A DNA stretch of 64,000 nucleotides from an uncultured delta proteobacterium (GCA_963785725.1 CAWAWS010000003.1:480001-544000), one strand, 5' to 3'. Positions 1 through 17,910 are shown, counted from the stretch's first letter. Notes: generated from the sequence alone by a model not told the origin. Made by a program: numbers and translations.

Positions 1-920
1 TCGGTTTGCAGCGTCCCCGTTGGCATCTCGTAACGTGCTTCGAGGGTGTGGCGAATCTCGGCAATGGTGCGCGAGCCGTCACAGATGTGCCAGATCGCCG
101 CGCCCGAAGCGTTGAGCGAGATCGCGTCCGCGCGCCCGGGAATCTCCAGGAACAGCGAGCCCAAGAGCTGGCCCTCCCGCACGTCCGCTCGTTTGCATGG
201 TCGGAGAGACGCCAGCTCATCGCCTTCGTCATCGGCTGGCGCGGCACCGTCGGCGGCATCGCGGCTCGTCGCGAGGTCCGCCACCGCGTGAGGGACACGC
301 GCCTCGGCCGCGGCGATCACATAGGCGACCTCGTCCGCGTCGCCGCGCGCGCCGTCGCAGCGCGCCGTTTCCGCGCGAATGAGGCTCATCAGCTCGAGCC
401 AGCGCGCGACGATCTTGCGCAGATCGGTCGAGTGGATGAGGACCGGCAGCCGAACCGCCGCCAGCTCGAGCTGGCGATCGACACAGAAACGGTCGAGGAA
501 CGAAAATGCCGCGCCCAAACCGAACGGGCCCGCGCCCGCCGGACGGTCGAGCCAAGCGCCGGCCTTGGCCTGACCGGGCCGTATCTCATCCGCCATGGCG
601 GCGCGGAAGTCGAAGGTCGGCTCGACGAGCAGGATGGTGCCCTGCACGTCCTCGGTGAAGAGCCATTCGAGCAGCCCTGCCGCTCTTTGATACGGCGGAT
701 AGACGTCGTCCGTGTAGGGATGCGGTGACCAGGACATCGTCGTGACGACGCGCGCGTGCGGAGACGACGGCAGCGGCCGCGACGGGTCTTGCGCGACGAG
801 CCGAACGAGCTCGCCCGGCTGCCGCACCCGATGCCAGGAGCGCGCGAGGCGCCCAACCTGTCCGTCGACGTCGCCGGCGGCGTCGTCATGGGACGACGTG
901 CAGAAAACGGTGTAAATCAC
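1..920 (-). CDS. SERGT/HPAT-like (GT96/GT95-like) glycosyltransferase domain fused to C-terminal PqqD/RRE; 3' end beyond window edge
   Basis: Not in the ORF track because it has no stop in the window. Manual translation from GTG 920 (overlaps upstream stop): VIYTVFC...SWHRVRQPGELVRLVA...WSPHPYTDDVYPPYQRAAGLLEWL...IHSTDLRKIVARWLELM...LNASGAAIWHICDGSRTIAEI. Clear paralog of 10154-11272. Confidence 0.8.
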   Translation of the reverse strand, partial: MIYTVFCTSSHDDAAGDVDGQVGRLARSWHRVRQPGELVRLVAQDPSRPLPSSPHARVVTTMSWSPHPYTDDVYPPYQRAAGLLEWLFTEDVQGTILLVEPTFDFRAAMADEIRPGQAKAGAWLDRPAGAGPFGLGAAFSFLDRFCVDRQLELAAVRLPVLIHSTDLRKIVARWLELMSLIRAETARCDGARGDADEVAYVIAAAEARVPHAVADLATSRDAADGAAPADDEGDELASLRPCKRADVREGQLLGSLFLEIPGRADAISLNASGAAIWHICDGSRTIAEIRHTLEARYEMPTGTLQT

Positions 921-1945
921 GCCTTCGCCTCTCCCTCGACGCGGCGCCGTCGTGCCGTCGCGCCGCCCGAAAAGTGGCCCCAGCCGAAGGTCGCGCGCGG
1001 GTCGACCTCGGTGCCGCGATGGAACCACATGGTGACGGCGAAGCGGCTGTCGGCGAACGCGCCCGATGGACAGCGCACCGGCAGCGCTTCGTGCAGCTCG
1101 TCGCTCGGGAACACGACCAGGCGATTGGCCAGCGGCGCGATGGCCGTGAAGGTCTCGGCCGCAGTCCGCGCGCCCGCGGCCTCGACGCGGTCATAGAGAC
1201 GCAGCTCGCCGCCGGCGAATCCGCGCGGCTGGCGATGCAAATAGTAAATACAGGTGAGCAGGCGCGGGATATCCGCAGCCTCGTCGGTGTGCGTCTTGAA
1301 ATAGTAGCCGTCCTTGGCCGCCGTCAGCTGCGACTCGAAGGCGGCGAGCGGGAAGATGGGCGTGCCCAAAATCTTGCCGAGCAGCGGAAGCCAAATCAGC
1401 AGCCGATTCTCGAGCAGCCGACTGTGCACCGACTCTTGGAAGTTCAAGATCGCCTGATTTTGTCGTACGCCGGGCTCGTAGGCGCTCACCGTTCCCGCTT
1501 GGAAGTGCGCTTCGGAGAAGAGCGCATAAGCGAGCAGCTCGTCATGCTCCGGCACGCTCAGGAAATCGTCGACGACGAAGAAGCGCGGACGGCACAGGCG
1601 CAGGGTCGGGCCGCTCTCGACTCCATCGTCGCGCCACCGCTCGTCTCGCGCGTCCATTGCCTGGCTCGGTGGCCGGAGAAGCTCGCCCTTCCTTGCGCCG
1701 CCAGGCCTGGGCGGCTCGAGGACGACGGGCGGATGGCTCTCGATGGAGACGAGGTTGGCCGTCTGAAAAGACCAGGCGACGCGGCCACCCGCGAGCGGAA
1801 GCTGGACGAGCTGGTTCTCGGCGTTGCGATTGGCGAGCGCGCCGAAGAGGACGGCCAGCTCCGGCGCGCCTTCTTGCAGGCTCACTTGGCGCGTGTCGCC
1901 GCCGGCCAAGCGAATCGTGAGCGTGATTTCGCGGGGCGCCGCCAT
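917..1945 (-). CDS. 2OG-Fe(II) oxygenase, prolyl-4-hydroxylase-like, with uncharacterised N-terminal domain
   Basis: HxD (FKTHTDE), GGELRLYD, NRLVVFPSDELHEALPV and DSRFAVTMWF motifs. Start MAAPREIT is coupled to the upstream stop. Paralog of 11269-12255. Confidence 0.85.
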   Translation of the reverse strand: MAAPREITLTIRLAGGDTRQVSLQEGAPELAVLFGALANRNAENQLVQLPLAGGRVAWSFQTANLVSIESHPPVVLEPPRPGGARKGELLRPPSQAMDARDERWRDDGVESGPTLRLCRPRFFVVDDFLSVPEHDELLAYALFSEAHFQAGTVSAYEPGVRQNQAILNFQESVHSRLLENRLLIWLPLLGKILGTPIFPLAAFESQLTAAKDGYYFKTHTDEAADIPRLLTCIYYLHRQPRGFAGGELRLYDRVEAAGARTAAETFTAIAPLANRLVVFPSDELHEALPVRCPSGAFADSRFAVTMWFHRGTEVDPRATFGWGHFSGGATARRRRVEGEAKA

Positions 1946-3942
1946 CACGCCGCGGCCTCCCAACCCGCCTCGCTGAAGCGCGCGACGATTCGCGCCGCTT
2001 CGTCCGGCTGGCTGAAGCGCAGCTGCGCCGCGGGCCGCTGTTCGACGAGCCGGCAGAGGTGGTTGACGGCGCGATCGCGGTCGATGCGAAAGTCGATCGA
2101 GGCGCCGATCAGCGCGGCGACCGCCTCCGCCGGCGACATGGGCGCGATGCGACTGTCGCGCGTATACAGCGGCGTTCTCTTGGCGATCACCAGTCGCTCG
2201 AGCGGAGCGGCAAAGCGGCCGGGCCCGGCTGCGCCTTCGGGCTGCGAGCGCGCGCACAGCGGCACGGCCACCAGGTCGGCCGCGCGGATGGCGATGACGC
2301 TGCGATCGATCAGCCGAAAGCCTTGCGCCTCGATGGCGCGCACCAACGCGTGGGTGGGATCGGCGATCTCACCCGCGATCACGAGGCCGCGCCCGCCTTT
2401 GACGAACGCCGCCGCCGAAAGCCACGTGTAGTTGTGGCGCGCGCGGGCGTAGATGCGGGCGATGTACCGCTTGAGCACGAGCGGCAGCTCCTTCGCGCCG
2501 CAGGCTATCTTCTGATCGCTGCCACGCTGCGCGATGCTGTAGGTCGTGTCGTGGCCGACGTCGAGGTTGGCGATCACGTTGCGCGCCTGCGTGGTCGCGT
2601 CCGCGCCCAGCTGCACGGAGAGCTGCTTGAGCAAGGCGGCGTCTTTGCACCACACGGCCACCTGCAGATCCTCGAAGCCGACATACACGACCGCTTCGTC
2701 TTTGGGCGCGAGCGCGGGCGCGCTCGGGCGCGCACCCAAAGACGCCGGCTTTGCCTCCGCGACCTTGACGAGCGCGCCCGTCTCGAGGACCTCGGGCAAG
2801 AGGAAGCTCTCGGGCCACTCGCGCATCCAGGCCGGGTTGAGCTGCTGGCTGACGCGATTCCACGAATAGGGCCCGGCGAAATCCTCGACCATCTCGCCGC
2901 GCTCGAGCAGGATGCACTCGCTGACGGCGTGGCGGCCGCGCTCGAGCTCCGCCTCCGCGTCCGGCAGCTCGTTCCACAAGTAGCGAAAGGCCTCGGGCTT
3001 GCCGCGATTGCCGCGATAGCGCTGGATCAGCCCGGTGAACGTGCTCGTCATCGTGCCCATGAACTCTTTCGCTTCCGCCGCCACGAGCTGCGACAGATAG
3101 GCGAGGCTCAAGCTGTCGCTGCGCGGCAGCTTGAGCAGCTCGCGGCCGTAGTGATCGAGGATGTGCCAATCGATGAAGTAGTGATGCGGATAGGCCTGCT
3201 TGATCGCCGTGAAGAAGGGATCGTCGCGCTCGTCGGTGAGGATGACCAACGGCTCCCTGCGGCTGAACAGCGGCTCCATCGCCTCGAGGGCTTCGGCCGG
3301 CTTGCGGTCGAGCGTCGTCACGCCGTAGGTGACCTTGAAGTCGCCGCGGCGGAAATGCACCGCGTTGAAGGCGCCGAGGTCGCGCGCCACGCGCTGGGCG
3401 AGCTCGGCGAACGGGCGCTTCGCCTGCATGTTCCGCAAGAGCCGGTACACCGATCGCCGCGTCTCGTGATCGAAATAGAATTGATAGCTGTAATAGCCGA
3501 GATTGGAGCGCTTATTCGCCTGCTCGGACAGCGCCAGCACGGGGATTTGCTCGTGCTCGCCCGTCACCGTCACCCAGTGGCGCCGACTGCGTGCGAAGGC
3601 GCGCGCATCGGACGAGGACACGTCGAGCGTCTTCGGAAAGTAGAGCGCGCAGTCCCACAGCGAGTGCTCGGTGAGCTCGCGGCGCGCCAGCCCAGCGAGG
3701 TCGACGGCGTCCGGCTCGACCCACGCCACCGGCATCTCGATGAGGTCGGTGACCCGGCTCGGAACGGCGTTGTCGACGCGACCGTCATAGCTGACGAGGT
3801 TGGCGGGTGGCGGAATATTGCCGTCGAGCACCAAGAGGCGATTGGTCAGATGCGCCAGGATCACGCCGATTTCGATCGACATGATGCCGTTGGACAGCCC
3901 CGAATTTCCCGACTGATAATTGGTGTACAGGAGATAGCGCAT
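1945..3942 (-). CDS. O-fucosyltransferase-like (GT-B) protein with C-terminal degenerate HPr-kinase-like domain
   Basis: SGLSNGIM..AHLTNRLLVL, FNAVHFRRGDF, VILTDE and EFMGTMTSTFT match the O-FucT pattern. C-terminal WLSAAAFVKGGRGLVIAGE resembles HPrK-related kinases but lacks an intact Walker A. Confidence 0.75.
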   Translation of the reverse strand: MRYLLYTNYQSGNSGLSNGIMSIEIGVILAHLTNRLLVLDGNIPPPANLVSYDGRVDNAVPSRVTDLIEMPVAWVEPDAVDLAGLARRELTEHSLWDCALYFPKTLDVSSSDARAFARSRRHWVTVTGEHEQIPVLALSEQANKRSNLGYYSYQFYFDHETRRSVYRLLRNMQAKRPFAELAQRVARDLGAFNAVHFRRGDFKVTYGVTTLDRKPAEALEAMEPLFSRREPLVILTDERDDPFFTAIKQAYPHHYFIDWHILDHYGRELLKLPRSDSLSLAYLSQLVAAEAKEFMGTMTSTFTGLIQRYRGNRGKPEAFRYLWNELPDAEAELERGRHAVSECILLERGEMVEDFAGPYSWNRVSQQLNPAWMREWPESFLLPEVLETGALVKVAEAKPASLGARPSAPALAPKDEAVVYVGFEDLQVAVWCKDAALLKQLSVQLGADATTQARNVIANLDVGHDTTYSIAQRGSDQKIACGAKELPLVLKRYIARIYARARHNYTWLSAAAFVKGGRGLVIAGEIADPTHALVRAIEAQGFRLIDRSVIAIRAADLVAVPLCARSQPEGAAGPGRFAAPLERLVIAKRTPLYTRDSRIAPMSPAEAVAALIGASIDFRIDRDRAVNHLCRLVEQRPAAQLRFSQPDEAARIVARFSEAGWEAAA

Positions 3943-4590
3943 CTATTCCCTCGTCGCCGTGCCTGCAGCAGTCGCGGGATGGTAGTGAACGAAGATTCCC
4001 GCGTAGAAATCGCCGTCGAGCGGATAGGGGCGACCATGCGCCAGACGCACGCCTTCATAGAGGACGTATTCGCCCGGCTCCATGTCGACTTGGTGCACTC
4101 GACCGTCGAGGCCCTCGATGTGCAGCGGCCAGCGCGACTCGAGCGCGTGATCGATGCAGATCGTCGAGCTGACGAAGTGCGGCTGGCGATCGACATGGTT
4201 GTACAGGAAGGTTCCGCGTTGATAGCAGCGAATGCCGTAACAGGCCGAGAGCTCGAGCAGCCTACCCGCCCACGCTTCGTGCAGCGGCTTGAGCTCGTCG
4301 GCGAGCTGCGCGTTGAACGCGTCCTCTTGGAATAGGAGCGCCGGAATCACGTCTTGGCGAGCGCTGCGAATTTCGTCGGAGGCGCGCTCGGGACGAAACT
4401 GCGCCAGGTTGTCGCGCAACTGCGTCACCAGTCGTGCGTGGATGGCCGGCGCCAGTCGCCCCTTTTGGAAGCCGAGCCCGAGACTGGGCGCCGCGGCCTG
4501 CATCTCTTCGCACTTCTTGCGTAGATACGGCGGCGCCGTCAGCTCCGTCAGCAGCGGCTGCCCCGGCTCGGCTTCGCGCGCGCGACTCAT
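3943..4590 (-). CDS. 2OG-Fe(II) oxygenase-like hydroxylase
   Basis: YGIRCY..LYNHVDR (HxD), WPLHIE, MEPGEYVLYEG..AHGRPYPLDGDFYAGIFVHY. ATG 4590 overlaps the upstream TGA (ATGA). Confidence 0.75.
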   Translation of the reverse strand: MSRAREAEPGQPLLTELTAPPYLRKKCEEMQAAAPSLGLGFQKGRLAPAIHARLVTQLRDNLAQFRPERASDEIRSARQDVIPALLFQEDAFNAQLADELKPLHEAWAGRLLELSACYGIRCYQRGTFLYNHVDRQPHFVSSTICIDHALESRWPLHIEGLDGRVHQVDMEPGEYVLYEGVRLAHGRPYPLDGDFYAGIFVHYHPATAAGTATRE

Positions 4591-5915
4591 GCGTGCTCCT
4601 TCTGAAGGCGCCTCCGCGCGGCGAGGCCGAGGTCGAAAAATCGGCGCTCGAGGTCGGTCTTGGCCGAGGCGCGAAAGCTGGCCAGGTTCTCGGCGAGGAA
4701 GTCGCGATCGGCGAACAGCTGCTTGTTCCACGCCGAGCCCAAGAAGGGGCCGCCGCAGCCGTCGTTGACGTCGGCGTAATAGTGGAAGAACGAGCCGGCG
4801 GCGACCGACTCCTGCTGCGGCACCGGTGTCATGAACTGCGGCGCTTGCAAGAGCTCGTAGTCGACACGATTGGCCGTCAGCGCCATGGCAAAGCAGGCCA
4901 TCTCCGCCATCCACACGCGGCTATCGGGAAGGCCGCCGGTCTTGCCGAGCAAGTAGATGATCTGCGCGAAGCGGAAGCAGTCTTTGATGACCTTGTCGTG
5001 CTTCAAGGTCGCGCCGGTCATGAAGACGGTGACGGCGCCGCGTTTGAGCTCGGTTCGACAGCCGAGCGCACCGAGCAGCTGTTGCAGGTCGATGCCGCTG
5101 TCGTCGTCGCCGCGGCTGAGAAAGCGCGGGTCGCGCATGATCGCGTCCGCGGCCAAGGCATTTCCGACCGGGAACACCTCGCGGTTCAGGTCACCGTACA
5201 AGAAGACGTCGCTGTCCATGAGGCAGACGAGATCAGCGGCAGCGACCCGCGGCGCCATCGCGTTGAGGGCCTCGACGCGGTTGAGCGCCACGTAGCCGCC
5301 ATCATGCGACGAGAAGTCGATCTTGTGGCTGTGCGCGTGGTTTCGTCCCGTGAGCACGCCGACCCCGTAGAGCGAGACGAGACGCGTCAGCGCCGGCGAA
5401 AGCGCCGCATGATCGTTGCACACGACGAGCGTGATGTCCCAGCCGGGCGCGAGCTGACCGACGAGCGACTCGAGCAGAATGCCGAGCTGCCAATGAAAAT
5501 ACGGTTTGTCCTCGACTCCGAAGACGAAGCGCACGCGCGGCCGGAGCGCGACTCCCGTTACCGTGTCGTCCGCGAAGGCCACCTCGTCGGCGAGCGCGCG
5601 CTCGGATGAAGGCAGCGCCAAATCGATCATGCCGAGCTGCGCAAAGTGGAACAGCGCCTCGGTGATATCGGCCAGGATGCGAACGTTTCTTCCGTCGTAG
5701 CGCGTGCGCAGCGCGTCGAGCATGTCGAGCGCCGTGTGCGCACCGTCGCAGAGCTGCCAGACCGCGGCCGCCGACTCGTTCAGCGCCAGCGCGACCTCAC
5801 CATCGGGCGACAAGACCACGAGCTCGTTGGCGACGGGAAACAACGAAAAGCCCAGCTTCGCTTGCGGTCGCGCGCTCGAACGGCCGCGAGCACGCGCGCC
5901 CATGTCGTTCATCAA
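4587..5915 (-). CDS. N-terminal PqqD/RRE fused to hydroxyproline O-arabinosyltransferase (HPAT/GT95)-like domain
   Basis: RRE: LALNESAAAVWQLCDGAHTALDMLDALRTRY. GT motifs PYFHWQ, GGYVALNR, LMDSD (DxD), WMAEMACFAMA, FFHYY and WNKQ parallel recalled plant HPAT motifs. Confidence 0.75.
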   Translation of the reverse strand: MMNDMGARARGRSSARPQAKLGFSLFPVANELVVLSPDGEVALALNESAAAVWQLCDGAHTALDMLDALRTRYDGRNVRILADITEALFHFAQLGMIDLALPSSERALADEVAFADDTVTGVALRPRVRFVFGVEDKPYFHWQLGILLESLVGQLAPGWDITLVVCNDHAALSPALTRLVSLYGVGVLTGRNHAHSHKIDFSSHDGGYVALNRVEALNAMAPRVAAADLVCLMDSDVFLYGDLNREVFPVGNALAADAIMRDPRFLSRGDDDSGIDLQQLLGALGCRTELKRGAVTVFMTGATLKHDKVIKDCFRFAQIIYLLGKTGGLPDSRVWMAEMACFAMALTANRVDYELLQAPQFMTPVPQQESVAAGSFFHYYADVNDGCGGPFLGSAWNKQLFADRDFLAENLASFRASAKTDLERRFFDLGLAARRRLQKEHA

Positions 5916-5991: not shown

Positions 5992-7005
5992 TTAAAGTAT
6001 CCAGCCGCGCGCCTGCGCCTCTTCGAACGTCACCGCGAGCGCCCAATCGGCCTCCGAGTGAATGGTCACGGGATCGGGATTCTTGCCGGTGAAGACATCG
6101 GGGTGCGCGCGTTTCCGCTGAAAATCGAAGCCGGAGTACAGCTCGTATTGGCGCAGCGTGCGCGCGCGTCCGAGGCTGTAGGGCCCGAGCGTGTGCCCCT
6201 CGTTCGCGTAAACCAGGCGGCGCAGTCGCTCCAGCGCCGTGGCGTTGCGCCGGCGAACGACCTCGTCGCCATGCTCCCAATGACGACGCGGCGGCGCGCC
6301 CCGGTGCAACATGTGCCAAGCCAGCACCTCGGTCGGCAGGAAGAAGTCGTATCCCCAGGTATAGCTGCGAACCGAGACGCTCAGCTCTTCGCCCCAATAA
6401 TAGTGGTCGGGATCCTGCGGCACCTCGACGTTCCATTGACCGCGCGTAAAGACGAAGCCGCCGTTGACGACGCGGGTTCTGCCCGGCTTTTGCTGGTTGG
6501 GCTCGCCGAAGCCGAACCACGGCGCCCAGCCGCCTTGCTCGGACCAGTCGCTGACGCGCGTCGTCGGCACGCCCATGTCCAAGCGGCGCTGCAGCGAGCC
6601 GTCGTCATCGTAGTAAAAGAGCGGCGAATTCATGGTCAGGATCGGCTTTTCGGCCGGGAGCGACTCGAGCATCTGGACCAAGCGCGCATCCCAGCCGGGC
6701 TCGAGCTTCATATGCGAATCGATCTGCAGCGTATAGGGCTCGCCGCGCCACTGCGACTGGGCCAGATTGCGCGCCCACGGTCCGCCTTGGCTCTCTTGGA
6801 CGGTGCGATCGATGAAGCGAAAACGCACATCGCGACGGAACCGCGACAGATCGAGCGGCGCGGCCGGATCGGCCTGCCAGCAGATGCCGAAGCGGAGCGC
6901 GGCCGGATGGCGCGCCATCGCCAGGCAGTCGTCGAGCGTGCGCGGCAGCTCCGGGTCGGCGTAGGCGGCAATGGCGACGAAGATCCGCTGGTCCGTCTTC
7001 ATCAC
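5992..7005 (-). CDS. Skp1-hydroxyproline N-acetylglucosaminyltransferase-like (GlcNAc family, GT60-like)
   Basis: IFVAIAAYADPE, LRFGICWQ, SQGGPWARNLAQSQWRGEPYTLQIDSHM, GGFVFTRG, YYWGEELSVSVRSYTWGYDFF, LGRARTLRQYE. Confidence 0.85.
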   Translation of the reverse strand: MMKTDQRIFVAIAAYADPELPRTLDDCLAMARHPAALRFGICWQADPAAPLDLSRFRRDVRFRFIDRTVQESQGGPWARNLAQSQWRGEPYTLQIDSHMKLEPGWDARLVQMLESLPAEKPILTMNSPLFYYDDDGSLQRRLDMGVPTTRVSDWSEQGGWAPWFGFGEPNQQKPGRTRVVNGGFVFTRGQWNVEVPQDPDHYYWGEELSVSVRSYTWGYDFFLPTEVLAWHMLHRGAPPRRHWEHGDEVVRRRNATALERLRRLVYANEGHTLGPYSLGRARTLRQYELYSGFDFQRKRAHPDVFTGKNPDPVTIHSEADWALAVTFEEAQARGWIL

Positions 7006-7084
7006 GCGCGCTCGAGCTTACACCACCGAGCGGCATGATAGGCTGCAGCGTCTACCGCTCGCCAAGCGACGAGGACGACCTTCG

Positions 7085-9169
7085 ATGATGGACATCGTCG
7101 CGCGCGAGCCCGCGCAGCGCGCCACTTACAAGATCTATTTCCCGCTGTTCGATGACGTCGAGTCACTCAGCAACGAAGTGCGGCTCACCCATCAAGGGCT
7201 GCGCCAGCACCCGCACGTGCAGCTGGTCGACCGGCCGGAGCTGGCGGACTATCTCGTCCTCTGCCAGAACCACCTCGTCGCTCACAATCCGCATCACGCG
7301 CGCTTCGTCGCGATCAAGGACCAATACAAAGACAAGACGATCATGCTCGACTACGGCGACGATCCCCATGAGCTATGGGATCGGCACGACTTCCGCTGGC
7401 GGCTGTACTTCAAGCGCAGCGTGGTCGATCGGCGGCAAGGGCGCGTGCTCGGCTATGCCGGTCTGCCGGTCTGGCCGACGGCGTACGCGGTGGTCGACGA
7501 CATGTGCGAGCCGCCGCTGCCTCTCGACAGAGAACACCGTCACGCGCGCCCGCTCGACCTGTCCTGCCTGTTCGACGATAGCGTCCTCGAGAGTCCGTAT
7601 TTTCGGCTGGCCCGCGGGCGGCTGCTCAAGTTTGCCAAGCGTCTCGTGGCGACGCACGGTCTGAACGCGCAGCTCGGGACCGTCTCCGAATGCGGACCGG
7701 TCGGCCGGTCGGCCATCGATCCCAAATACAAAGAATGCCTGTGGGCCAGCAAGATCGTGTTGCACGCCAACCCGGATCGGTGGGAAGGCGATGCGCGGCT
7801 CTGGGAGGCGCTGGCTGCCGGCGCGCTGGTATTCGTCGAACGGTTGCATGCGCCCATCGCGCACCCGCTCGTCGATGGCGAGCATCTCGTCTTCTACGAT
7901 TTCACCGACGCGGGCATGGCGATCCTCGAGCGGCAGATCCTGCATTACCTGGCGAGCGACACAGAGCGCGAGCGCATCGCGGTGCAAGGAAGGCGGTTCG
8001 TGCTCGCGCATCATCGTTCGATTCACCGGGCCAACGAGATCATCAGTCGACTCGAGCAGCCGAGCGCCACCAAGGTCACGGCGAGCGCCAAGCCCGACAT
8101 CATCGTGGCCATGGCCAGCGGCTGCGCGCGCCTCGGCGACTACCGGACCTTCGTCGCGACCTTGCGCCGCAGCGGCGCCACCTGTCCCGTCTTTCTCGGC
8201 ATCGACGCCGGCTCCGCGTCCGCGCCGATCAAAAAGTACCTGCTCGAGCACGCCGTCAATTACTTCATGGTCGAGCCCATGACGGGTGGCGACCGCTTCG
8301 GCGAATACGCCAAGTGGCTACGCGACGTCGATTTTCGCTACGCGCTGCTGCTCGACTTCGGCGCCACCTACTTTCAACGCGATCCGTTCCTCGACGTCGA
8401 CGGCTACATGGCTGGTTGCGACCTTCTCGTCATGTCGGAGCTGGTCTTGGGGCGCAAGGCGGCGCTGCTGCGATTACTCGACGCGCTCGCCGCGCTCGAC
8501 CCGTCGCAGCGCGTCCAGCCGGACGTGCTGAGTCAGCTCGCACGGACAGGCCATCTCGACCATTGCGGTCGGATCCAGATCGAGCGCGCCGGCCAGAGCC
8601 TCGTCCATCAGCGTGAAGGACGAGTCGAGCCGTTGCGCGATCACGACGGCTGGCTGCTCGATGACGACGGCAACGTCTCCTCCGTCGTGCAGTGCGACAC
8701 GCGACTCCCCGACCTCGCGCCGTTCGTGTCGCGGTTGAGCGATTACGAGCAGCCGGACGAGCTGTTCGTGGCGAGCGGCAGCCGGCCCTATCGCGGGCAG
8801 AAATTCACGCTGTCGTCGCGCGCCGGGCTCAGGCCCGACGCAGTCTCGCGCCTGATCGCGCTGGCCAAGAGCATCTCCGTCGACAAAAAGCCGCTCTTCG
8901 TGCTCGACCGTCGTTTCCGGCGCGGCTTCGTCTTTGCTTACGGCGTGCTGAGCATCGATCTATTGGCGGAACCCGAGCCGCTGCGGCGCCGCTTCTTCCA
9001 CCCTTCGGACGACCGCAAGAAGTGCGCGCAATTCTGCGAGAAGCACGGTTACGCCGTCTTCCGCGTCGACGAGCACGCGCTCTTCGCGAGCGTCGGAGCG
9101 ACCGCGGATCGCGTGCTCACCGCGGACAGCTTTGCCGAAGCGCGCGCGCTCGCCGAGCGTTGGATCTGA
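7085..9169 (+). CDS. Multidomain glycosyltransferase (CgeB/Glyco_trans_1_2-like N-half plus degenerate GT-A-like C-half)
   Basis: SKIVLHANP..RLWEALAAGALVF..LVDGEHLVFYD..RERIAVQGRRFVLAHH. Second domain FVATLRRSG..LLLDFGATYFQRDPF. Start approximate. Confidence 0.65.
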   Translation: MMDIVAREPAQRATYKIYFPLFDDVESLSNEVRLTHQGLRQHPHVQLVDRPELADYLVLCQNHLVAHNPHHARFVAIKDQYKDKTIMLDYGDDPHELWDRHDFRWRLYFKRSVVDRRQGRVLGYAGLPVWPTAYAVVDDMCEPPLPLDREHRHARPLDLSCLFDDSVLESPYFRLARGRLLKFAKRLVATHGLNAQLGTVSECGPVGRSAIDPKYKECLWASKIVLHANPDRWEGDARLWEALAAGALVFVERLHAPIAHPLVDGEHLVFYDFTDAGMAILERQILHYLASDTERERIAVQGRRFVLAHHRSIHRANEIISRLEQPSATKVTASAKPDIIVAMASGCARLGDYRTFVATLRRSGATCPVFLGIDAGSASAPIKKYLLEHAVNYFMVEPMTGGDRFGEYAKWLRDVDFRYALLLDFGATYFQRDPFLDVDGYMAGCDLLVMSELVLGRKAALLRLLDALAALDPSQRVQPDVLSQLARTGHLDHCGRIQIERAGQSLVHQREGRVEPLRDHDGWLLDDDGNVSSVVQCDTRLPDLAPFVSRLSDYEQPDELFVASGSRPYRGQKFTLSSRAGLRPDAVSRLIALAKSISVDKKPLFVLDRRFRRGFVFAYGVLSIDLLAEPEPLRRRFFHPSDDRKKCAQFCEKHGYAVFRVDEHALFASVGATADRVLTADSFAEARALAERWI

Positions 9170-9182
9170 GTCGCTGCTGGCT

Positions 9183-10154
9183 CTATTGGGACGTCGCTCG
9201 ACGTCTTCGGCCGCGGCGCTCGTTGCGTTCGCTGCCCTCGCTGAACCAGGCCACCGTTTGGGCGAGCCCGCGCTCATACGAGACCGTGGGCTCCCAGCCG
9301 AGCAGTCGGCCCGCGCGGCTGATGTCGGGGCAGCGCTGCCGCGGATCGTCTTGCGGCAGCGGATGAAACTCGAGCCGCACGTCGCTGCCGACGGCGCGGC
9401 GCACGTCTTCGGCGACCGACAAGATGGTGCGTTCGTCCGGGTTGCCGAGATTGACGATGGGAACGACCTCGGCGCTCGACTTGGAAAACTCCATGAGCGC
9501 GCCTAAGCCGGCGACGAGATCATCGACGTAACAGAAGCTGCGCGTCTGGCTGCCGTCGCCATAAATGGTGAGCGGATCGCCGCGCAGCGCCTGCGTGATG
9601 AAGTTCGGGATGAGCCGTCCGTCGCCGCTGGCCATGCGCGGTCCGTAGGTGTTGAAGATGCGCGCGATGCGCACCTCGGTGCCGTATTGCGCGGCCCACG
9701 ACGTGGCCATCGCTTCGCCGCAGCGCTTGCCCTCGTCGTAGCAGCTGCGCACGCCGACGGGATTGACGCGGCCGTGATATTCCTCGCGCTGCGGGCTCAC
9801 GTCGGGATCGCCATAGACCTCACTCGTCGACGCGATGAGGAGGCGAGCACCGACCTCGCGCGCGCATTCGAGCGCGTGCATCGTGCCCATCACCGCCGTC
9901 TTGATGGTGCGAACGGCGTTGCGTTGGTAATGCACGGGCGACGCGGGGCAGGCGAGGTGCCAGATACGGTCGACCTCGAAGTGGAACGGCTCGCAGACGT
10001 CACCGCGAACGAATTCCACCGCGTCGGTGTCGAGGTTCGCACGGCTGCCGGTGAACAAGTTGTCGAAGCAGATGACCTCCTCATGCGCGCGCACCAACGC
10101 GTCGCACAGGTGCGACCCGATGAACCCAGCGCCGCCGAGGACGAGATGCCGCAT
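9183..10154 (-). CDS. uxs: UDP-glucuronate decarboxylase (UDP-xylose synthase), SDR family
   Basis: GGAGFIGSHL, HLACPASPVHYQ, ASTSEVYGDP, RSCYDEGKR, RIFNTYGPRM, GSQTRSFCYVDD, DDPRQRCPDI. Confidence 0.9.
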   Translation of the reverse strand: MRHLVLGGAGFIGSHLCDALVRAHEEVICFDNLFTGSRANLDTDAVEFVRGDVCEPFHFEVDRIWHLACPASPVHYQRNAVRTIKTAVMGTMHALECAREVGARLLIASTSEVYGDPDVSPQREEYHGRVNPVGVRSCYDEGKRCGEAMATSWAAQYGTEVRIARIFNTYGPRMASGDGRLIPNFITQALRGDPLTIYGDGSQTRSFCYVDDLVAGLGALMEFSKSSAEVVPIVNLGNPDERTILSVAEDVRRAVGSDVRLEFHPLPQDDPRQRCPDISRAGRLLGWEPTVSYERGLAQTVAWFSEGSERNERRGRRRRATSQ

Positions 10155-11272
10155 CAGAGCCGCTCGAACCTGAGCGCGCCGATCTGCTCGAGGCGCCGCA
10201 AGACGGCCTCGGTATCGGGCTGCAGGCTGCCTTGCGGGAGCTCGAAGCGCGATTCGAGCGTTCGGTGGATGTCGGCGATCGTGTGCGTGCCGTCGCAGGC
10301 TTCCCAGATCGCGGCGCCGGAAGAGTCGAGCGCCAACGTGTCCGCGCGGCCGGGAATCTCGAGGAAGATCGAGCCGTAGATCTTGCCCGTGCGCACGCCG
10401 TCGCCGCGCAGCGGCCGCATGAACGTGAGCTCGTGTCGATGCGCGCGCCGTTCGCGCAGCTCGGCCAACAGCGTCAAGAGCTCGCGGCCCGTGCCCGCCT
10501 TTGCCGACAGCGGATCGACCGGATGATCCAAGCTGCCATCGCCGCTCGCATCCCACACGATCGCGCCGCTCGCCGACTCGACGGCGCGCTGGCAGTCGAT
10601 GATCGGCGCCGCGCTCTCGATGGCATGCGTGTCCGTCGCGAGCTCGGCCGCTGCGTGCGGAATGCGCGCCTCGGCGGCGGCGATCAGATAAGCCACGTCG
10701 TCGGCCGCGCGCAGCGGACCGTCTTCGGTGAGCGCGGTCTCGGCGCGAATCAGGCTCATCAGCTCCAGCCAGCGGGCCGCGATCTTGCGCAGATCGCTCG
10801 AGTGGATGATGAGCGGCAGCTTCACCGCGTCCAGCTCGAGCGCGCGATCGACGCAAAACTGGTCGAGGAACCCAAAGTCTCGGCCGAGGTCGAACGGACC
10901 GTCGCCGCGCGGGCGCTCCGGCCACGCCATGGCTTTGGCTTGGCCCGCTCGCGCTTCCTCGGTCACCGCCGCGCGAAAGACGCAGCGCGGCTCGACGAGG
11001 AGGATGGTCCCATCGACTTGCTCGCCGAACAGCCATTCGAGAATCGCGGCCGCTTTGTGGTACGGCGGATAGACGTCGCCCGTGTACGGATGCGGCGACC
11101 ACGCCGTCGTCGCCACGACGCGCGCGTGCCGATGCGTCGGCGCCGGCGGCGCTGGAGGGCGCGCGACCAGGCGCACCAGCTCGCCCGGTTGCCGCACGCG
11201 CGCCCACGAGAGCTCGAGCAGCTCGCACTGCCACTCGGGCTCACCGAAGCTGCAAACGACCGTGTGGATCAC
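10154..11272 (-). CDS. SERGT/HPAT-like glycosyltransferase domain fused to C-terminal PqqD/RRE
   Basis: IHTV..EWQCELL..QPGELVRL..WSPHPYTGDVYPPYHKAAAILEWL..IHSSDLRKIAARWL..AYLIAAAEA resembles plant peptidyl-serine galactosyltransferase domains. C-terminal LDSSGAAIWEACDGTHTIADI is an RRE. GTG start overlaps the upstream stop. Confidence 0.75.
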   Translation of the reverse strand: MIHTVVCSFGEPEWQCELLELSWARVRQPGELVRLVARPPAPPAPTHRHARVVATTAWSPHPYTGDVYPPYHKAAAILEWLFGEQVDGTILLVEPRCVFRAAVTEEARAGQAKAMAWPERPRGDGPFDLGRDFGFLDQFCVDRALELDAVKLPLIIHSSDLRKIAARWLELMSLIRAETALTEDGPLRAADDVAYLIAAAEARIPHAAAELATDTHAIESAAPIIDCQRAVESASGAIVWDASGDGSLDHPVDPLSAKAGTGRELLTLLAELRERRAHRHELTFMRPLRGDGVRTGKIYGSIFLEIPGRADTLALDSSGAAIWEACDGTHTIADIHRTLESRFELPQGSLQPDTEAVLRRLEQIGALRFERL

Positions 11273-12255
11273 GAGCCCACGCTGCGCAGCTGCGGCGCGA
11301 CCACGCCGCAAAAGAAGTGGCCCCAGCCGAAGCGTGCCTGCGGATCGACCTTGTCGCTGGCGTGCAGCCAGACGGTGATGGCAAAGCGGCTGTCGGCGAA
11401 TTCGCCCGATGGACAGCGCACGGGCAGCGCTTCGTGGAGCTCATGGCTGGCGAACACGACCAGCCGATTGGCCACCGCCTGCACCGGCACGAACGACTCG
11501 GCGGCCCTGACCTCGGCGCCGCCTTCGACGGAGACGGCGTCGTAGAGCCGCAGCTCGCCGCCGCTGAAACCGCGCGGCTCGCGGTGCAAATAGTAGATAC
11601 AGGTCAGCGCCCGCGGCGTCGTCGGCGATTGGTCGGCGTGCGTCTTGAAATAGTGGCCGTCGCGCGCCGCGGTCAGCTGCGACTCGAGCTGCGCCAGCGG
11701 AAACACCGGCAGCCCCAAGCGCTTGGCGATGAGCGGGAACCAAATGAGCAGCCGATTTTCGAGCAGCCGACTGTGCACCGACGCGCCGAAATCGAGGATG
11801 ACCTGATTCTGCCGCACCTCGGGCGTGTAGGACTCGGTCACGGTGCCAGCCTCGAACTGCGCCTCGGAGGCGAGCGCATAGGCGAGCAGCTCGTCGTGCT
11901 CTTGTGGGCTCAGGAAATCGTCGATGATCACGCAGCGAGGACGACGCACGCTCAGCGACGAAGCGGAACGCGTGGCCTCGGGCTGAGCCGCCGCGTTTGG
12001 CTGCGCTGGGCTCAGCCGTTCGGGAGCGAGCACCACCGGCGGCTCACTCGTCACGGAGACGATCTTCGCCGTTTGAAACGACCAGGCGCGGCGGCCGCCG
12101 TCGAGCGGCAGCTGCAGGAACCGGTTCTCAGCCCACGGCGAGGCGAGCGCGGCGAACAGCGCCAGCAGCTCGGGCGCATCTTCGCGCAGCCGCACTTCAC
12201 GTGCTTCGCCGCTGACCAGGTTGATCGTGAGCGTGATGTCGCGCAGTGTCCCCAT
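11269..12255 (-). CDS. 2OG-Fe(II) oxygenase, prolyl-4-hydroxylase-like, with uncharacterised N-terminal domain
   Basis: FKTHADQ, GGELRLYD, ELHEALPV, DSRFAITVW. First gene downstream of the Pro-rich precursor. Confidence 0.85.
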   Translation of the reverse strand: MGTLRDITLTINLVSGEAREVRLREDAPELLALFAALASPWAENRFLQLPLDGGRRAWSFQTAKIVSVTSEPPVVLAPERLSPAQPNAAAQPEATRSASSLSVRRPRCVIIDDFLSPQEHDELLAYALASEAQFEAGTVTESYTPEVRQNQVILDFGASVHSRLLENRLLIWFPLIAKRLGLPVFPLAQLESQLTAARDGHYFKTHADQSPTTPRALTCIYYLHREPRGFSGGELRLYDAVSVEGGAEVRAAESFVPVQAVANRLVVFASHELHEALPVRCPSGEFADSRFAITVWLHASDKVDPQARFGWGHFFCGVVAPQLRSVGS

Positions 12256-12351
12256 CAGTCGGTGGCCTTCGTGTCCGCATGGGCGAGGCGCGAACGGAGC
12301 CACGTCCTCTTAACCGTGCGGCGGCAATGAGTCGTGCGCATCCGAACGACG

Positions 12352-12954
12352 TTACGAAGTGGTCGCGCGCAGTCGAACGCGCGCAGTCGCGCGCGCCGCG
12401 CCGAGCGCGATGAAGCCGACCGAGCTCGACCCGCAGTCGGGCGCGCTCGCCATTCCCAACACCGGTGACACCGTTGGCGCCAGGGTCGGCGCGGGGACGC
12501 AGTGGCCGGCCATGGTCGGATGCGCGGTCGGCGCTCGCGTCGGCGGCGCGGTCGGCGCTCGCGTCGGTGGCGCAGTCGGCGCTGGCGTCGGCGGCGCCGC
12601 TGTCGGCGGCGCGGTGGGCGCCCGCGTCGGCGCCAGGGTCGGCAAATTGATCACGGAATGGTCGTCGCCGGCGCCACCGTAGTAAGCCAGCGCCGTGCCG
12701 GGCTTCAAGATCGTGCCCAGCCCCGCCGCCAGCTGCGCCATCGGCAGCGATAGGACCACCGGCGCCACCCACATCTTCTTCAGCGCGTCGCGGCGCGATG
12801 GATCGGCCGCCGGCTCGTCCGGCTTGGCGTCGGCCGCCTGCGCGTGCGCCGGCTCGGACGACTCCGCCGCGTCGTGCTGCTCCAGCTTCCTCTTGAGCTC
12901 CTCGAGCTCGGCGAGCAGCTGCTCTTTGGTCTTCTTGTCGCTACCGTCGCTCAA
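12352..12954 (-). CDS. Putative precursor/substrate protein: leader plus Tat-like signal plus Pro-Thr-Ala repeat core
   Basis: TTG start with GAGGT RBS 8 nt upstream. SRRDALKKMWVAPVVLSL, TALA|YYGG, 13 PT dipeptides, hydrophobic/basic C-tail. Lies between a standalone RRE and a P4H-like gene. Confidence 0.7.
   Translation of the reverse strand: MSDGSDKKTKEQLLAELEELKRKLEQHDAAESSEPAHAQAADAKPDEPAADPSRRDALKKMWVAPVVLSLPMAQLAAGLGTILKPGTALAYYGGAGDDHSVINLPTLAPTRAPTAPPTAAPPTPAPTAPPTRAPTAPPTRAPTAHPTMAGHCVPAPTLAPTVSPVLGMASAPDCGSSSVGFIALGAARATARVRLRATTS
12514..12645 (-). repeat. Imperfect tandem coding repeat (24-nt unit, APTAPPTR)
   Basis: Repeated cgcggtcggcgctcgcgtcggcgg-type units within the precursor ORF. 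Confidence 0.8.
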
Positions 12955-12972
12955 GAGGTTGTACCTCGGCCA

Positions 12973-13278
12973 TCACGGAGTGATTTCGACGAGCGCGTGC
13001 AAGCTCAGATAGCGCAGAAACGTAACCACATCGCGCTCGAGCACCGAACGATCCGGCGCGACGTAGTCACTTTCCAGCTGCTCGCACAAGGCGGCAATCG
13101 TCGACGCTTGCTCGAGGTGTTGCCAAATGGTCTTACCAGCTTCGTCGAGGCCGACATAGAGGCCGCGCTCGACGCTCATGAGAATGTGCCGGCCTCCGAC
13201 GTCGGCCGAAAGGAAGGGCTTGCGCGCGACTCGCGACGCCAAGCTCACCCCCCCGCTGCCAGCGCCCGACCAGAGCAT
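12973..13278 (-). CDS. Standalone PqqD-family RiPP recognition element (RRE)
   Basis: ADVGGRHILMSVERGLYVGLDEAGKTIWQHLE..IAALCEQLESDY..LERDVVTFLRYL. Start may instead be GTG 13248. Confidence 0.85.
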   Translation of the reverse strand: MLWSGAGSGGVSLASRVARKPFLSADVGGRHILMSVERGLYVGLDEAGKTIWQHLEQASTIAALCEQLESDYVAPDRSVLERDVVTFLRYLSLHALVEITP

Positions 13279-13356
13279 CCTGCTAGTGAAGGTACGCCAT
13301 GTCCTTGTGGTCAACAAGCGCGAACTGGCCTAGCATCGCGGGCACTGACTCGAATC

Positions 13357-14478
13357 ATGCTGCGTTCGCTCGATGATGTCCTCTCGCCGCTCACCGTCGG
13401 AGAATTCGCGGCGGCGGTCGACGGCAGGAAGCGCTTCCACGTGCAGACGACCGATCCGCGGCGCGCGGAGTCGCTGCTGCCGTGGCCCGAGATCGAGGCG
13501 ATGATCTCGATGCGTCGCTTCGAGAACATGAAGGTGATGCACAACGGCATGGTGGTGCCGCCGCAGCTGTACAACGCGGACGTGAGCGCGCTGCACGACG
13601 TGCTCTTGCAAGGCGCCAGCATCGTCGCCACGCGCGTCGACGCGGATGTGCCGCAGATCCAGTGGCTGGCGACCGCGATCGAACGGCAGCTCGGGCGCGA
13701 GGTCGGCGTCAATGCGTATCTGAGCTTCTCGGAGGGCGGCGCGTTCAAGCCACACTGGGATCGGCACGATGTGCTGGTCTTGCAAGTCCACGGCGCGAAA
13801 ACGTGGAGCATCTGGAACGCGACGCTCGACAATCCCGTCGAGATGTCGCGCTTCGCCAAGCACGACATCACGGACGCGCCCTGTCAGTCGCTCGAGCTGG
13901 CGGCCGGCGACGTCCTTTACATCCCGCGCGGAGAGCCGCACGCCGCGTCGGTGTCGAGCGGCGCCTCGGTGCATCTGACGTTCGGGATCGAGCGCATCAC
14001 CGGCGTCGACGCGTTACAGCGGCTGCAACAGGCGGCCGGCGAAGATGCCTTCTTGCGCGCGGATGTGCCCACCAAAGAGCGGCCCGCGCAGCTGCACGCG
14101 TTCGAAGCCGAGTGGAAGGCGCGCTTGCACCGCCTGGTCGACGCGACTGACCTAGCGCAGGTTTTGCACGACAGCGACCTGCAGCGACCGCCGGTTCGGC
14201 AGGCCTCCTTGTCGACGTTCGCGGAGCCGAGCGATCTCGTACGGCTCACGTTGCGGCGGCGCGTTCCGCTCGATGGCGGCACGGTGACCATTGGCGGCGT
14301 CGCGCACCCGCTCTCGGCCGCGGCCATCGACCTCTTGCGCCGCTTGTTCGAGCGCGACTGGCAGACGCGCGCTGCGCTGACGCAGGCGCTGGCGCCGCGT
14401 CACGAGCCCTCAGCGGTCGAGCGCGCGCTCCGCGAGCTCGCGCGGCTCGGCTTCATCGCCACGCATCGTCCGATATAG
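13357..14478 (+). CDS. JmjC/Cupin_4 (ribosomal-oxygenase-like) 2OG hydroxylase
   Basis: VNAYLS..GAFKPHWDRHDVLVLQVHGAKTW..GDVLYIPRGEPHAA..SVHLTFG, with a winged-helix-like C-terminus. Confidence 0.85.
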   Translation: MLRSLDDVLSPLTVGEFAAAVDGRKRFHVQTTDPRRAESLLPWPEIEAMISMRRFENMKVMHNGMVVPPQLYNADVSALHDVLLQGASIVATRVDADVPQIQWLATAIERQLGREVGVNAYLSFSEGGAFKPHWDRHDVLVLQVHGAKTWSIWNATLDNPVEMSRFAKHDITDAPCQSLELAAGDVLYIPRGEPHAASVSSGASVHLTFGIERITGVDALQRLQQAAGEDAFLRADVPTKERPAQLHAFEAEWKARLHRLVDATDLAQVLHDSDLQRPPVRQASLSTFAEPSDLVRLTLRRRVPLDGGTVTIGGVAHPLSAAAIDLLRRLFERDWQTRAALTQALAPRHEPSAVERALRELARLGFIATHRPI

Positions 14479-15378
14479 CGGCGCGATGCGTTCGGCGACG
14501 AGCTGTCGCTCCGCTTCGGACAGCGGCGCGTGCGCGCGGGCGCGGAACGGCTGCTCGCTCTGCGCCTTGGAGTCGAAGCGCGCTCGCTCGCGCATGCGTT
14601 CGATGGCCGACGGCGCGAAGGTCAGCTGCGCATGGGGCGCGACCTCATCCCAGACGGCATCGGGCAGCCGCGCGTAATCGACCGTGCGCAAGGAAAGCTT
14701 GGCGGCGTGCGCGGCCGAGAACAGCGCTTCGATGGCGTGCAGCCGAAAGCGCGCCGCCGACATCGCCCGCGCCTCGTCGACCGTGAGGCCGAACAGCGCC
14801 AGCGCCGGATCGCCCGTCTCGCGCCAGCTCAGCCATGCCGCCGGCTGTGCGGCGTGCGAGGCCAGCACCCGCAACGGATCGCGCTGCAGCCAGATCATCG
14901 GCGTCGCCGGAAACGCGCGCTGAATCAGGTTCACCGCCAGCACGTTCCAGCTCGTGAGCTTGAGGACGAGGTGGCGTGCGCCGGCGCGGTTGCGGCCGAG
15001 CGCGCGCACGACCAAGCGAAACAGCTCCACCTTATCGTGCTGATCGAGGCGCGCCGCGACGATGTTGTTGACGACGTTGACTTCCGAGAGCACGACATAA
15101 TCGGGCAGCGCCGCCAACATCTGCGCCAGCAAGGTCGACCCGCAGCGCGACACTTGAAAGATGAACAGCGACGGCTCGAGCGTCGGCCGCTCGTCGAGCG
15201 CGCGCAGCACGTCGACTCCGGTCAGCGCCTTGAGCTTGTCATTGGGCAGTCGCGCCAGCGTGTCGCGAAAGAACGGCTCGACGAAGCGCACGTCGCGCAG
15301 ATCGGCCCAGGTGAACAGCGGCTCGGGCAGGAATCGCACCGCGATGGGCGTGCAGTGCGCAGCGTCGTGCACGGTCAC
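14410..15378 (-). CDS. Sulfotransferase-family P-loop protein
   Basis: FIFQVSRCGSTLLAQML, VLSE, LKLTSWN, LQRDPLRVLASH. Confidence 0.7.
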   Translation of the reverse strand: MTVHDAAHCTPIAVRFLPEPLFTWADLRDVRFVEPFFRDTLARLPNDKLKALTGVDVLRALDERPTLEPSLFIFQVSRCGSTLLAQMLAALPDYVVLSEVNVVNNIVAARLDQHDKVELFRLVVRALGRNRAGARHLVLKLTSWNVLAVNLIQRAFPATPMIWLQRDPLRVLASHAAQPAAWLSWRETGDPALALFGLTVDEARAMSAARFRLHAIEALFSAAHAAKLSLRTVDYARLPDAVWDEVAPHAQLTFAPSAIERMRERARFDSKAQSEQPFRARAHAPLSEAERQLVAERIAPLYRTMRGDEAEPRELAERALDR

Positions 15379-15396
15379 GAGGTCAGCCGCCCGGCC

Positions 15397-15807
15397 TCAA
15401 ATCATCATGCCCGGCCGGATCAGGCGCGCGAGCTGCAGCTCGGCGAAGCGCAGTCGCTGACGCGGCTCGAGCATGCGACAGATGTCGAGCGTGCGCTCGA
15501 AGCCGATCTCGTTCAACGTCTGACGCTGCTCGCGAATCCTCTCGCTGGTGGCGCGTATCTCCGCCTCGTTCAGCGCGACCAAGTTCAGCTTCTGTTGCGC
15601 CACCAGCCGCTCCAGCTCCTCGCGCGCATGGCCGTAGCGCTCGAGGTCGCGGTCGAAGATGGCTTGCAGCTGCGCGCTCTGCGCCGGGGCGAGATCGAGC
15701 TGGTCGAGGATGGAGCGCCCCTTCTTCTTCGGTTCGCGCCGCGGCTGTGGTGCCGTTGGGACGATCTCACCCATCAGCCGAGCCAAGAACTTACGCCTCT
15801 CCATCAC
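15397..15807 (-). CDS. Spy/CpxP-like helical protein
   Basis: LDLAPAQ and MLEPRQR resemble LTxxQ motifs; helical composition. Confidence 0.5.
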   Translation of the reverse strand: MMERRKFLARLMGEIVPTAPQPRREPKKKGRSILDQLDLAPAQSAQLQAIFDRDLERYGHAREELERLVAQQKLNLVALNEAEIRATSERIREQRQTLNEIGFERTLDICRMLEPRQRLRFAELQLARLIRPGMMI

Positions 15808-16369: not shown

Positions 16370-16380
16370 GTCTCGTTCGC

Positions 16381-17746: not shown

Positions 17747-17910
17747 GGTCGCGCCCACGATTTCACGAAGACAACGCCCTCGCAAGCCGCGCCTCCGCTG
17801 ACGGCGCCCGCTCGGGCACGACACTTTTGCCGGCGTTGCCGAGTCGGTGTCGCATCGAACCGCTCAAGTCGTCACGGCTGGGGCCGATGGACTAGAAGAG
17901 GGGGCATATC

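Follow-up and report, generated by a model that had tools for sequence, protein, structure and literature searches.

Glycosylation of hydroxyproline in proteins has been described from plants, algae and protists (PMC8724618, PMC8012813). The plant hydroxyproline O-arabinosyltransferases (HPATs) of family GT95 act on hydroxyproline, are related to GT96 as a sister family and carry a Golgi type II anchor (PMC8012813), and a GT-A fold has been predicted for GT95 (PMC8476585). Here we describe a gene of an uncultured delta proteobacterium that joins a recognition element of the kind used for peptides that ribosomes make and that are modified after translation (RiPPs), the RiPP recognition element (RRE), to a glycosyltransferase with HPAT-type motifs. 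The gene, RRE-GT, lies at 4587..5915 on the minus strand of a 64,000-nucleotide stretch (GCA_963785725.1, CAWAWS010000003.1:480001-544000; the window, with positions counted from its first letter). Judged by its sequence, its product is an uncharacterised member of a glycosyltransferase family without a Pfam model, encoded in a conserved, leader-guided cassette.

RRE-GT resembles plant HPAT1-3 through remote homology, traced via proteins that match the Pfam HPAT model PF23452, through its GT-A fold, and in that it is paired with genes of prolyl-hydroxylase-like enzymes and with a repeat protein rich in proline. It differs in being soluble with an N-terminal RRE and in its candidate substrate, which has PTxx repeats where the plant enzymes act on Ser-Pro4 or CLE peptides; it also falls below Pfam detection, and no supply of UDP-arabinofuranose was found in the 88%-complete host genome. 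The plant enzyme SGT1 (GT96) provides a further likeness, as a hydroxyl amino acid beside proline is abundant in the candidate substrate, but here that residue is threonine and not serine, and RRE-GT is fused to an RRE.

In protists, the Skp1 pathway performs soluble cytoplasmic hydroxyproline glycosylation with enzyme fusions; GT60 and a PhyA-type hydroxylase form a known hydroxyproline-N-acetylglucosamine (GlcNAc) pair, and GT60 also initiates on threonine or serine (PMC8724618). Transfer of function within GT60 is described as speculative (PMC3797821). The operon described here likewise contains a PhyA-like hydroxylase and two GT60 genes, and Gat1 of the Skp1 pathway is among the top folds matched by RRE-GT. 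However, Skp1 is a single folded protein that is modified at one site and stays inside the cell, whereas the protein considered here is a leader-bearing, many-site repeat protein with an export-like signal. We know of no RRE or HPAT-related enzyme in the Skp1 pathway. Cytoplasmic O-glycosylation before export is also performed on the serine-rich repeat proteins of streptococci and staphylococci by GtfA/GtfB and accessory glycosyltransferases, with accessory Sec and with an inactive glycosyltransferase paralogue as helper. GlyE of that pathway was among the fold matches of RRE-GT (5gvv, Z 13.7), but the system uses other glycosyltransferase families, no hydroxylases, no RRE or leader recognition, and Sec rather than the twin-arginine translocation (Tat) route. 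The lasso peptide proteins TbiB1 and TfuB1 have two features in common with this locus, the RRE fold and a partner leader with a WxxP motif; here the substrate is a repeat protein of 130-350 aa, and no leader peptidase or cyclase was seen.

RRE-glycosyltransferase fusions were mentioned in 2020 as uncharacterised, in terms from which the family meant is not identifiable in the accessible text (PMC7470986). Bacterial operons predicted to hydroxylate and sulfate collagen-like proteins have also been described, the accessible text mentioning no glycosyltransferase or PqqD (PMC2938197). Literature searches, with incomplete coverage of subscription papers and supplements, found no published description of the RRE-GT cassette.

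RRE-GT is an open reading frame of 442 codons (442 aa) that starts at TTG 5915 or ATG 5912 and whose stop codon and the ATG of the gene behind it overlap in ATGA (4587-4590). Residues 31-97 (5625..5825, minus strand) matched the PqqD/RRE model PF05402 above its cut-off (E 2.5e-11). The AlphaFold model (117 homologues; mean pLDDT 89) had a disordered linker (residues 102-121) between the RRE and a GT-A domain at residues ~124-440 (4596..5546, minus strand), a remote relative of HPAT and SGT1 that has no Pfam model of its own. No membrane helix was present in this model, whose N-terminus is the RRE domain. The modelled RRE aligned to two leader-bound lasso RREs, TbiB1 (5v1u; Z 12.3, root-mean-square deviation (rmsd) 2.0, 84 residues aligned) and 6jx3 (Z 11.9). 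The fusion of an RRE to a glycosyltransferase, as proposed in the initial annotation, was borne out by the PF05402 match and by the lasso RRE and GT-A fold matches. The annotation had also presented the fusion as a new enzyme architecture. What held up was the joining of an RRE to a GT-A domain that is intact and of HPAT/SGT1 kinship; novelty did so less well, since RRE-glycosyltransferase fusions had already been mentioned and precomputed Pfam annotation already shows HPAT plus PqqD fusions (84 of 120 listed matches, with PqqD C-terminal in those examined).

Six motifs quoted in that annotation were present in the stated order: PYFHWQ (138-143), GYVALNR (207-213), DSD (234-236), WMAEM (335-339), HYY (378-380) and WNK (396-398). 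They had been set beside the strings PY..WQ, GYVVLNR, WVLEM, IHY and FDK, which the annotation took to be those of plant HPATs. All 117 full-length homologues keep W142, Q143, D234, D236, E338, M339, H378, Y379, W396 and K398, and N212 (113/117) and W335 (116/117) are nearly invariant (alignment A1, without P0059, P0103, P0106 and P0120). As both aspartates of the metal-binding motif D234-S-D236 (5208..5216, minus strand) are included, the DxD motif is intact, as had been claimed, and the GT-A domain as a whole is apparently intact. The open reading frame thus holds an RRE and a GT-A domain with the quoted motifs. The closest structural matches of the GT-A model were glycogenin, LgtC and the Skp1 alpha-galactosyltransferase (VIA Z 15.3, 14.9 and 14.8; rmsd 3.6-3.9; 217-240 residues aligned), and the top-ranked Foldseek matches were GT6 enzymes. 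The structure libraries searched showed no GT95 or GT96 structure, so fold ranking cannot place the family. Membership of GT8, GT6 or GT24 was not found by sequence: there was no Pfam match and no PDB sequence match by protein or profile, the fold likeness standing at 6-15% identity. PDB sequence searches with the GT domain and with the GT60, O-fucosyltransferase-like and coupled oxygenase proteins of the operon gave no significant match.

Kinship with HPATs was examined at several levels. Direct membership of the Pfam HPAT family was rejected, as RRE-GT gave no PF23452 match. Weak, sub-threshold PF23452 matches were obtained for 7/30 GT domains of the family (best E 0.028; RRE-GT not among them) and for 3/17 more distant relatives. 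PF23452 searches of the host genome (0/1) and of 151 genomes (0/151) returned nothing and are uninformative, as no control matched either. None of the protein searches brought up a plant HPAT or SGT1 by name, and the kinship was traced via retrieved PF23452-positive proteins. HPAT-family paralogues encoded in the operon matched PF23452 in 14/21 members (best E 7e-15), the tested window copy giving no match. With hhalign, the RRE-GT family aligned to this paralogue family over 254 columns (probability 96.4, E 1.2e-9), to intact members of the PF23452 group (probability 95.2) and to P0209, a eukaryote-like, membrane-anchored protein that scores 65 bits to PF23452 (probability 93.5). WQ, YxxxN, DxD, WxxE/DM, HY and K stood in register between the RRE-GT family and PF23452-positive proteins, the bacterial counterparts being WQ, YNKP, DPD, W..DM, HY and K.

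A profile of 113 PF23452-positive bacterial proteins (7/120 having been left out as short, unannotated or fused) scored the RRE-GT domain at 25.7 bits. The family median was 21.6 bits, with 76/117 members above 20 bits; among controls, 472/1170 shuffled sequences scored, with a maximum of 3.0, and 33/117 reversed sequences scored, with a maximum of -1.8. In the six-frame translated host genome, the profile matched only the RRE-GT open reading frame (E 1.4e-4) and two paralogues. At the level of these profiles, the match of RRE-GT to the HPAT-positive group is more than chance. In a tree of 58 retrieved domains, rooted at the midpoint only, a long and fully supported branch parted the RRE-GT family from all PF23452-positive rows. 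Because the alignments are indirect and this branch is long, we place the family as a remote sister group of HPAT/SGT1 (GT95/GT96) and not as a demonstrated GT95 member. Kinship of the domain with the HPAT/SGT1 group is supported; the narrower description of it as specifically HPAT-like did not stand, given a likeness below Pfam detection and the long branch.

The likely substrate of RRE-GT is encoded in the same window (12352..12954, minus strand), by a gene that the initial annotation had overlooked, as it had the conserved operon. This 200-aa protein has a coiled-coil start, RR at 54-55, WxxP at 62-65, AxA at 88-90 and 13 Pro-Thr units, mostly four residues apart. Of 33 genome loci (many being incomplete on one side), 28 had a substrate-like gene, whose product starts with a coiled coil and combines an RRxxL...WxxPxxL leader with an AxA-like site and Pro-Thr repeats; the gene lay directly upstream of RRE-GT in 26 loci from several phyla. 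In three of the five loci without it the sequence ends within 0.5-3.1 kb upstream of the GT domain; the RRE, too, is missing from L034, which has no such gene. W/Y/LxxP has been published as a sequence that RREs recognise (PMC12710340), and a co-encoded precursor with a conserved recognition sequence, as expected of an RRE-dependent system, was present in these 28 loci. Invariance of the RR, W, P and L positions in alignment A6 arises by construction, as its rows were picked by pattern, and we relied instead on a selection by composition: open reading frames picked by Pro-Thr repeats alone carried RR...WxxP in 23/26 cases, versus 7/68 Pro-Thr-repeat frames genome-wide. The host genome contains only one leader of this type. 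In 29 substrate cores, 376/612 prolines precede threonine and 376/565 threonines follow proline, mostly with four-residue spacing. These results suggest that the Pro-Thr-repeat protein is the likely substrate of RRE-GT, which very probably glycosylates it in some way.

Features of a Tat signal were seen by eye in the substrate (S/T-R-R-x-x-L, a hydrophobic stretch and AxA), and TatC is encoded in the genome; no Pfam or NCBIfam model matched. The twin arginines lie ~50 residues into the protein, and some lineages have a short hydrophobic stretch. Substrate C-termini varied by eye, with a hydrophobic anchor-like tail, an IPVELxxF end or neither. In several Gammaproteobacteria and Acidobacteriota loci (L017-L028, L032) an IPVELxxF(D/E) end replaces the hydrophobic tail, and this end is possibly an unlisted sorting signal.

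A 2-oxoglutarate (2OG)-Fe(II) oxygenase gene follows directly downstream of the GT in 33/33 loci (operon members being counted with identity thresholds). In the window (3943..4590, minus strand) its start overlaps the GT stop, and its product has an intact HxD...H motif and a proline-hydroxylase-like fold. H132, D134 and H185 were invariant in 28 alignment rows; L026 was dropped from the oxygenase alignment for an internal stop, and alignment A8 was made without L014, L015, L016 and L034. The best Foldseek match of the oxygenase model was the Pseudomonas prolyl 4-hydroxylase 4iw3 (E 1e-7). Oxygenase and GT are fused in at least two proteins (P0125, P0130), and also in P0059, which looks frameshifted. 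Because of this strict coupling and fusion, hydroxyproline would fit as the acceptor. We propose that the RRE grips the WxxP leader of the Pro-Thr-repeat protein and that the GT adds the first sugar to hydroxyprolines made by the oxygenase, a reading that we favour even though the doubts slightly outweigh the support. The RRE would bind the leader as a beta-strand in the cytoplasm, as lasso RREs do; the coupled oxygenase would hydroxylate prolines of the PTxx repeats; and the GT-A domain, metal-dependent and probably retaining, would use an NDP-sugar to glycosylate those hydroxyls. As donor, arabinose is no likelier than a UDP-hexose. The finished glycoprotein may exit by Tat and, in some lineages, be anchored at the surface.

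Searches recovered 152 homologues of RRE-GT, with PF05402 present in 116 of 120 listed, and 47 representatives included RRE-less and otherwise fused GT forms. The 33 loci came from Myxococcota, Binatia, Nitrotoga, marine Gammaproteobacteria, Acidobacteriota and Nitrospirales, and cultured hosts of the cassette include Luminiphilus syltensis and Elongatibacter sediminis. A search of 60 relatives of the host genome, four of them of the same genus, did not find the gene. Such patchiness fits a transferred cassette, and because of it the cassette is not a lineage marker. No match to RRE-GT was obtained in the phage records and viral contigs searched; in the Atlas, the clusters nearest to it consist of phage proteins (HPAT on 16% and 40% of their members), and among viral folds an uncharacterised phage protein matched best. 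P0151, P0158, P0162, P0163, P0166 and P0167 are deep-branching, RRE-less relatives of the GT domain. L034 (9932-12798) holds an RRE-less copy with an apparent frameshift, followed by oxygenase and fucosyltransferase-like genes, with no leader gene.

The repeats offer threonine as well as proline, and a leader-guided RRE-GT could act in the manner of SGT1 on the repeat threonines, possibly only those beside hydroxyproline, with hydroxyproline itself handled by GT60. We consider this unlikely, yet it carries real weight: 376 of the 565 core threonines follow proline, GT96, the sister family of GT95, comprises a serine alpha-galactosyltransferase, and GT60 with a PhyA-like hydroxylase already constitutes the known hydroxyproline-GlcNAc pair. 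However, the strict coupling and fusion of the oxygenase suit a hydroxyproline acceptor better, and GT60 members initiate on threonine and serine too. Because GT60 initiates on hydroxyproline and on threonine, the site of RRE-GT may be either of the two. RRE-GT might otherwise extend a chain, adding the second sugar once GT60 has placed GlcNAc, as the GT8-type Gat1 does in the Skp1 pathway. This is distinctly unlikely: the closest solved folds do belong to enzymes with sugar acceptors (glycogenin, LgtC and the Skp1 alpha-galactosyltransferase at Z 14.8-15.3, and GT6), and most loci have two GT60 genes, but with GT95 and GT96 missing from the libraries the fold ranking cannot place RRE-GT, its sequence kin are peptide-initiating families, and GT60 is less constant than the oxygenase (24/33 loci for each gene versus 33/33, partly from incomplete loci).

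A true HPAT analogue, which would transfer onto hydroxyproline an arabinofuranose or other pentose obtained through the linked UDP-xylose synthase, appears highly improbable. The HPAT-type motifs are in register, and the synthase, 3.3 kb from RRE-GT, is a real UDP-glucuronate decarboxylase (9183..10154, minus strand; E 5e-103 to human UXS1). It is nevertheless not a conserved member of the cassette: an orthologue lies near RRE-GT in 1/33 loci, compared with 11/33 for GDP-mannose 3,5-epimerase, and the ~28% matches are cross-hits to that epimerase. The suggestion that the synthase supplies a pentose donor is accordingly not supported, and as a general donor supply it was rejected. Plants require a GT75 mutase for UDP-arabinofuranose (PMC8012813). 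The reported lack of a mutase in the window extended to the whole host genome (88% complete), in which neither the RGP mutase (PF03214) nor the GLF mutase (PF03275) was found; UDP-xylose 4-epimerase is not distinguishable there from other epimerases. The arabinose reading is weak, given that neither mutase was found there and that the cassette does not conserve the synthase, and the long branch separating the family from PF23452-positive proteins also counts against it. It is very unlikely, too, that the acceptor is another protein, a glycolipid or a polysaccharide, with the repeat protein merely a neighbour or scaffold. RRE-less homologues, the phage proteins in the nearest Atlas clusters and the locus without a detected leader gene speak for this; the RRE fused in 116 of 120 listed homologues and the leader gene adjacent in 26/33 loci across phyla speak against it.

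Several observations weigh against leader-guided initiation on hydroxyproline by RRE-GT, the reading that we prefer. L031 encodes RRE-GT with 10 kb on both sides, and no leader gene was detected in it. In the window the substrate gene is not adjacent but 6.4 kb upstream, behind a stand-alone PqqD gene; between it and RRE-GT lie duplicates of the hydroxylase and paralogue genes, together with the synthase and two glycosyltransferases. Stand-alone GT forms without an RRE occur, and the RRE-GT protein gave no match at E<=1 to PF23452 (cut-off 23.9 bits). The coupled oxygenase had no Pfam or PDB sequence match, and its model comes about equally close to a large number of 2OG enzymes (VIA Z 13-15, with an uncharacterised top match). 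Threonine is as frequent as proline in the repeats and the related GT96 uses serine, so hydroxyproline is not forced as the acceptor. Finally, with GT60 being the known initiator on hydroxyproline, RRE-GT may not be the initiator.

Other genes of the operon encode further modifying enzymes. A GT60-type polypeptide GlcNAc transferase (5992..7005, minus strand; PF11397, E 5e-44) has a second copy just left of the window, each of the two having orthologues in 24/33 loci; these enzymes would place GlcNAc on other hydroxyproline or threonine sites. An O-fucosyltransferase-like and HprK-like fusion (1945..3942, minus strand; 31/33 loci), with a below-cut-off O-FucT match (E 4e-4) and a weak HprK_rel_A match, may cap or extend the glycan. 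A prolyl-4-hydroxylase-like 2OG oxygenase (917..1945, minus strand; PF13640, E 1e-18) occurs in 27/33 loci, and the profile of its family best matched the Dictyostelium prolyl hydroxylase 6t8m in the PDB (E 2e-13). A second copy (11269..12303, minus strand; PF13640, E 8e-17) is 67% identical to it. Both hydroxylases carry an ~80-residue N-terminal domain without a family match, found genome-wide only in these two genes; a by-eye likeness of this domain to the tail of P0299 was not confirmed.

Two HPAT-family paralogues with a C-terminal PqqD lie beside the hydroxylases. One (3..920, minus strand; 27/33 loci) extends 63 nt past the window edge and has EPT in place of DxD; the other (10154..11272, minus strand), 64-65% identical to it, has EPR in place of DxD and lacks W..EM. 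Among 21 aligned copies, DxD was kept in 5/21 and W..DM in 3/21, the window copies having neither, and degenerate copies nest among intact ones in the tree. Because both motifs are lost and the copies nest in this way, the degenerate paralogues are likely non-catalytic, pseudoenzyme scaffolds that would bind the leader. Intact relatives occur in L029-L031 and among many Alphaproteobacteria-type matches. The hydroxylase and HPAT-RRE pair is locally duplicated (10154-12303 versus 3-1945, 64-67% identity), a duplication that was not seen in the other loci.

An accessory two-domain glycosyltransferase-like gene (6971..9169, plus strand; PF13524, E 1e-14) was found in 7/33 loci. The stand-alone PqqD/RRE gene directly before the substrate gene (12973..13317, minus strand; PF05402, E 5e-14) was found in 2/33 loci, and it matched lasso_PqqD_Bac below cut-off (E 1e-11). 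Beside it (12844-17824) are a JmjC oxygenase, a sulfotransferase, an Asp/Asn beta-hydroxylase-like gene and two further sulfotransferase-like genes; JmjC and PqqD genes precede the substrate also in L006 and L007. Extra hydroxylation or sulfation by these enzymes is possible. The cluster continues left of the window (L001, 15321-17940) with the second GT60, a GDP-mannose 3,5-epimerase and a 243-aa gene that has no Pfam match and occurs in 9/33 loci. L001 also encodes a 2220-aa Cys-rich repeat protein (8403-15065); by eye, its start resembles a signal and its C-terminal tail is hydrophobic and anchor-like.

Taken more broadly, the locus may represent a multi-phylum mobile cassette in which RiPP-style leader recognition, together with soluble relatives of plant HPAT/SGT1 and protist PhyA/GT60 enzymes, yields a hydroxyproline-rich, O-glycosylated surface protein made in the cytoplasm. 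RRE-GT would then found an unlisted family of hydroxyproline-initiating glycosyltransferases, and plant extensin-type glycosylation would have a bacterial counterpart that is possibly also its source; we hold this proposal to be possible, and put it forward tentatively. If true, soluble, leader-addressed hydroxyproline glycosylation in bacteria would add a novel route to surface glycoproteins, and glyco-engineering could profit from a leader by which hydroxylases and glycosyltransferases are brought to any peptide fused to it, as a portable tool for leader-addressed glycosylation. Since the cassette itself points to its substrate and occurs in cultured hosts, direct reconstitution is feasible. 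RRE-GT and its homologues would be the first tractable soluble relatives of GT95 and GT96, families for which no solved structure turned up in our searches, and the origin of the plant extensin enzymes would become testable.

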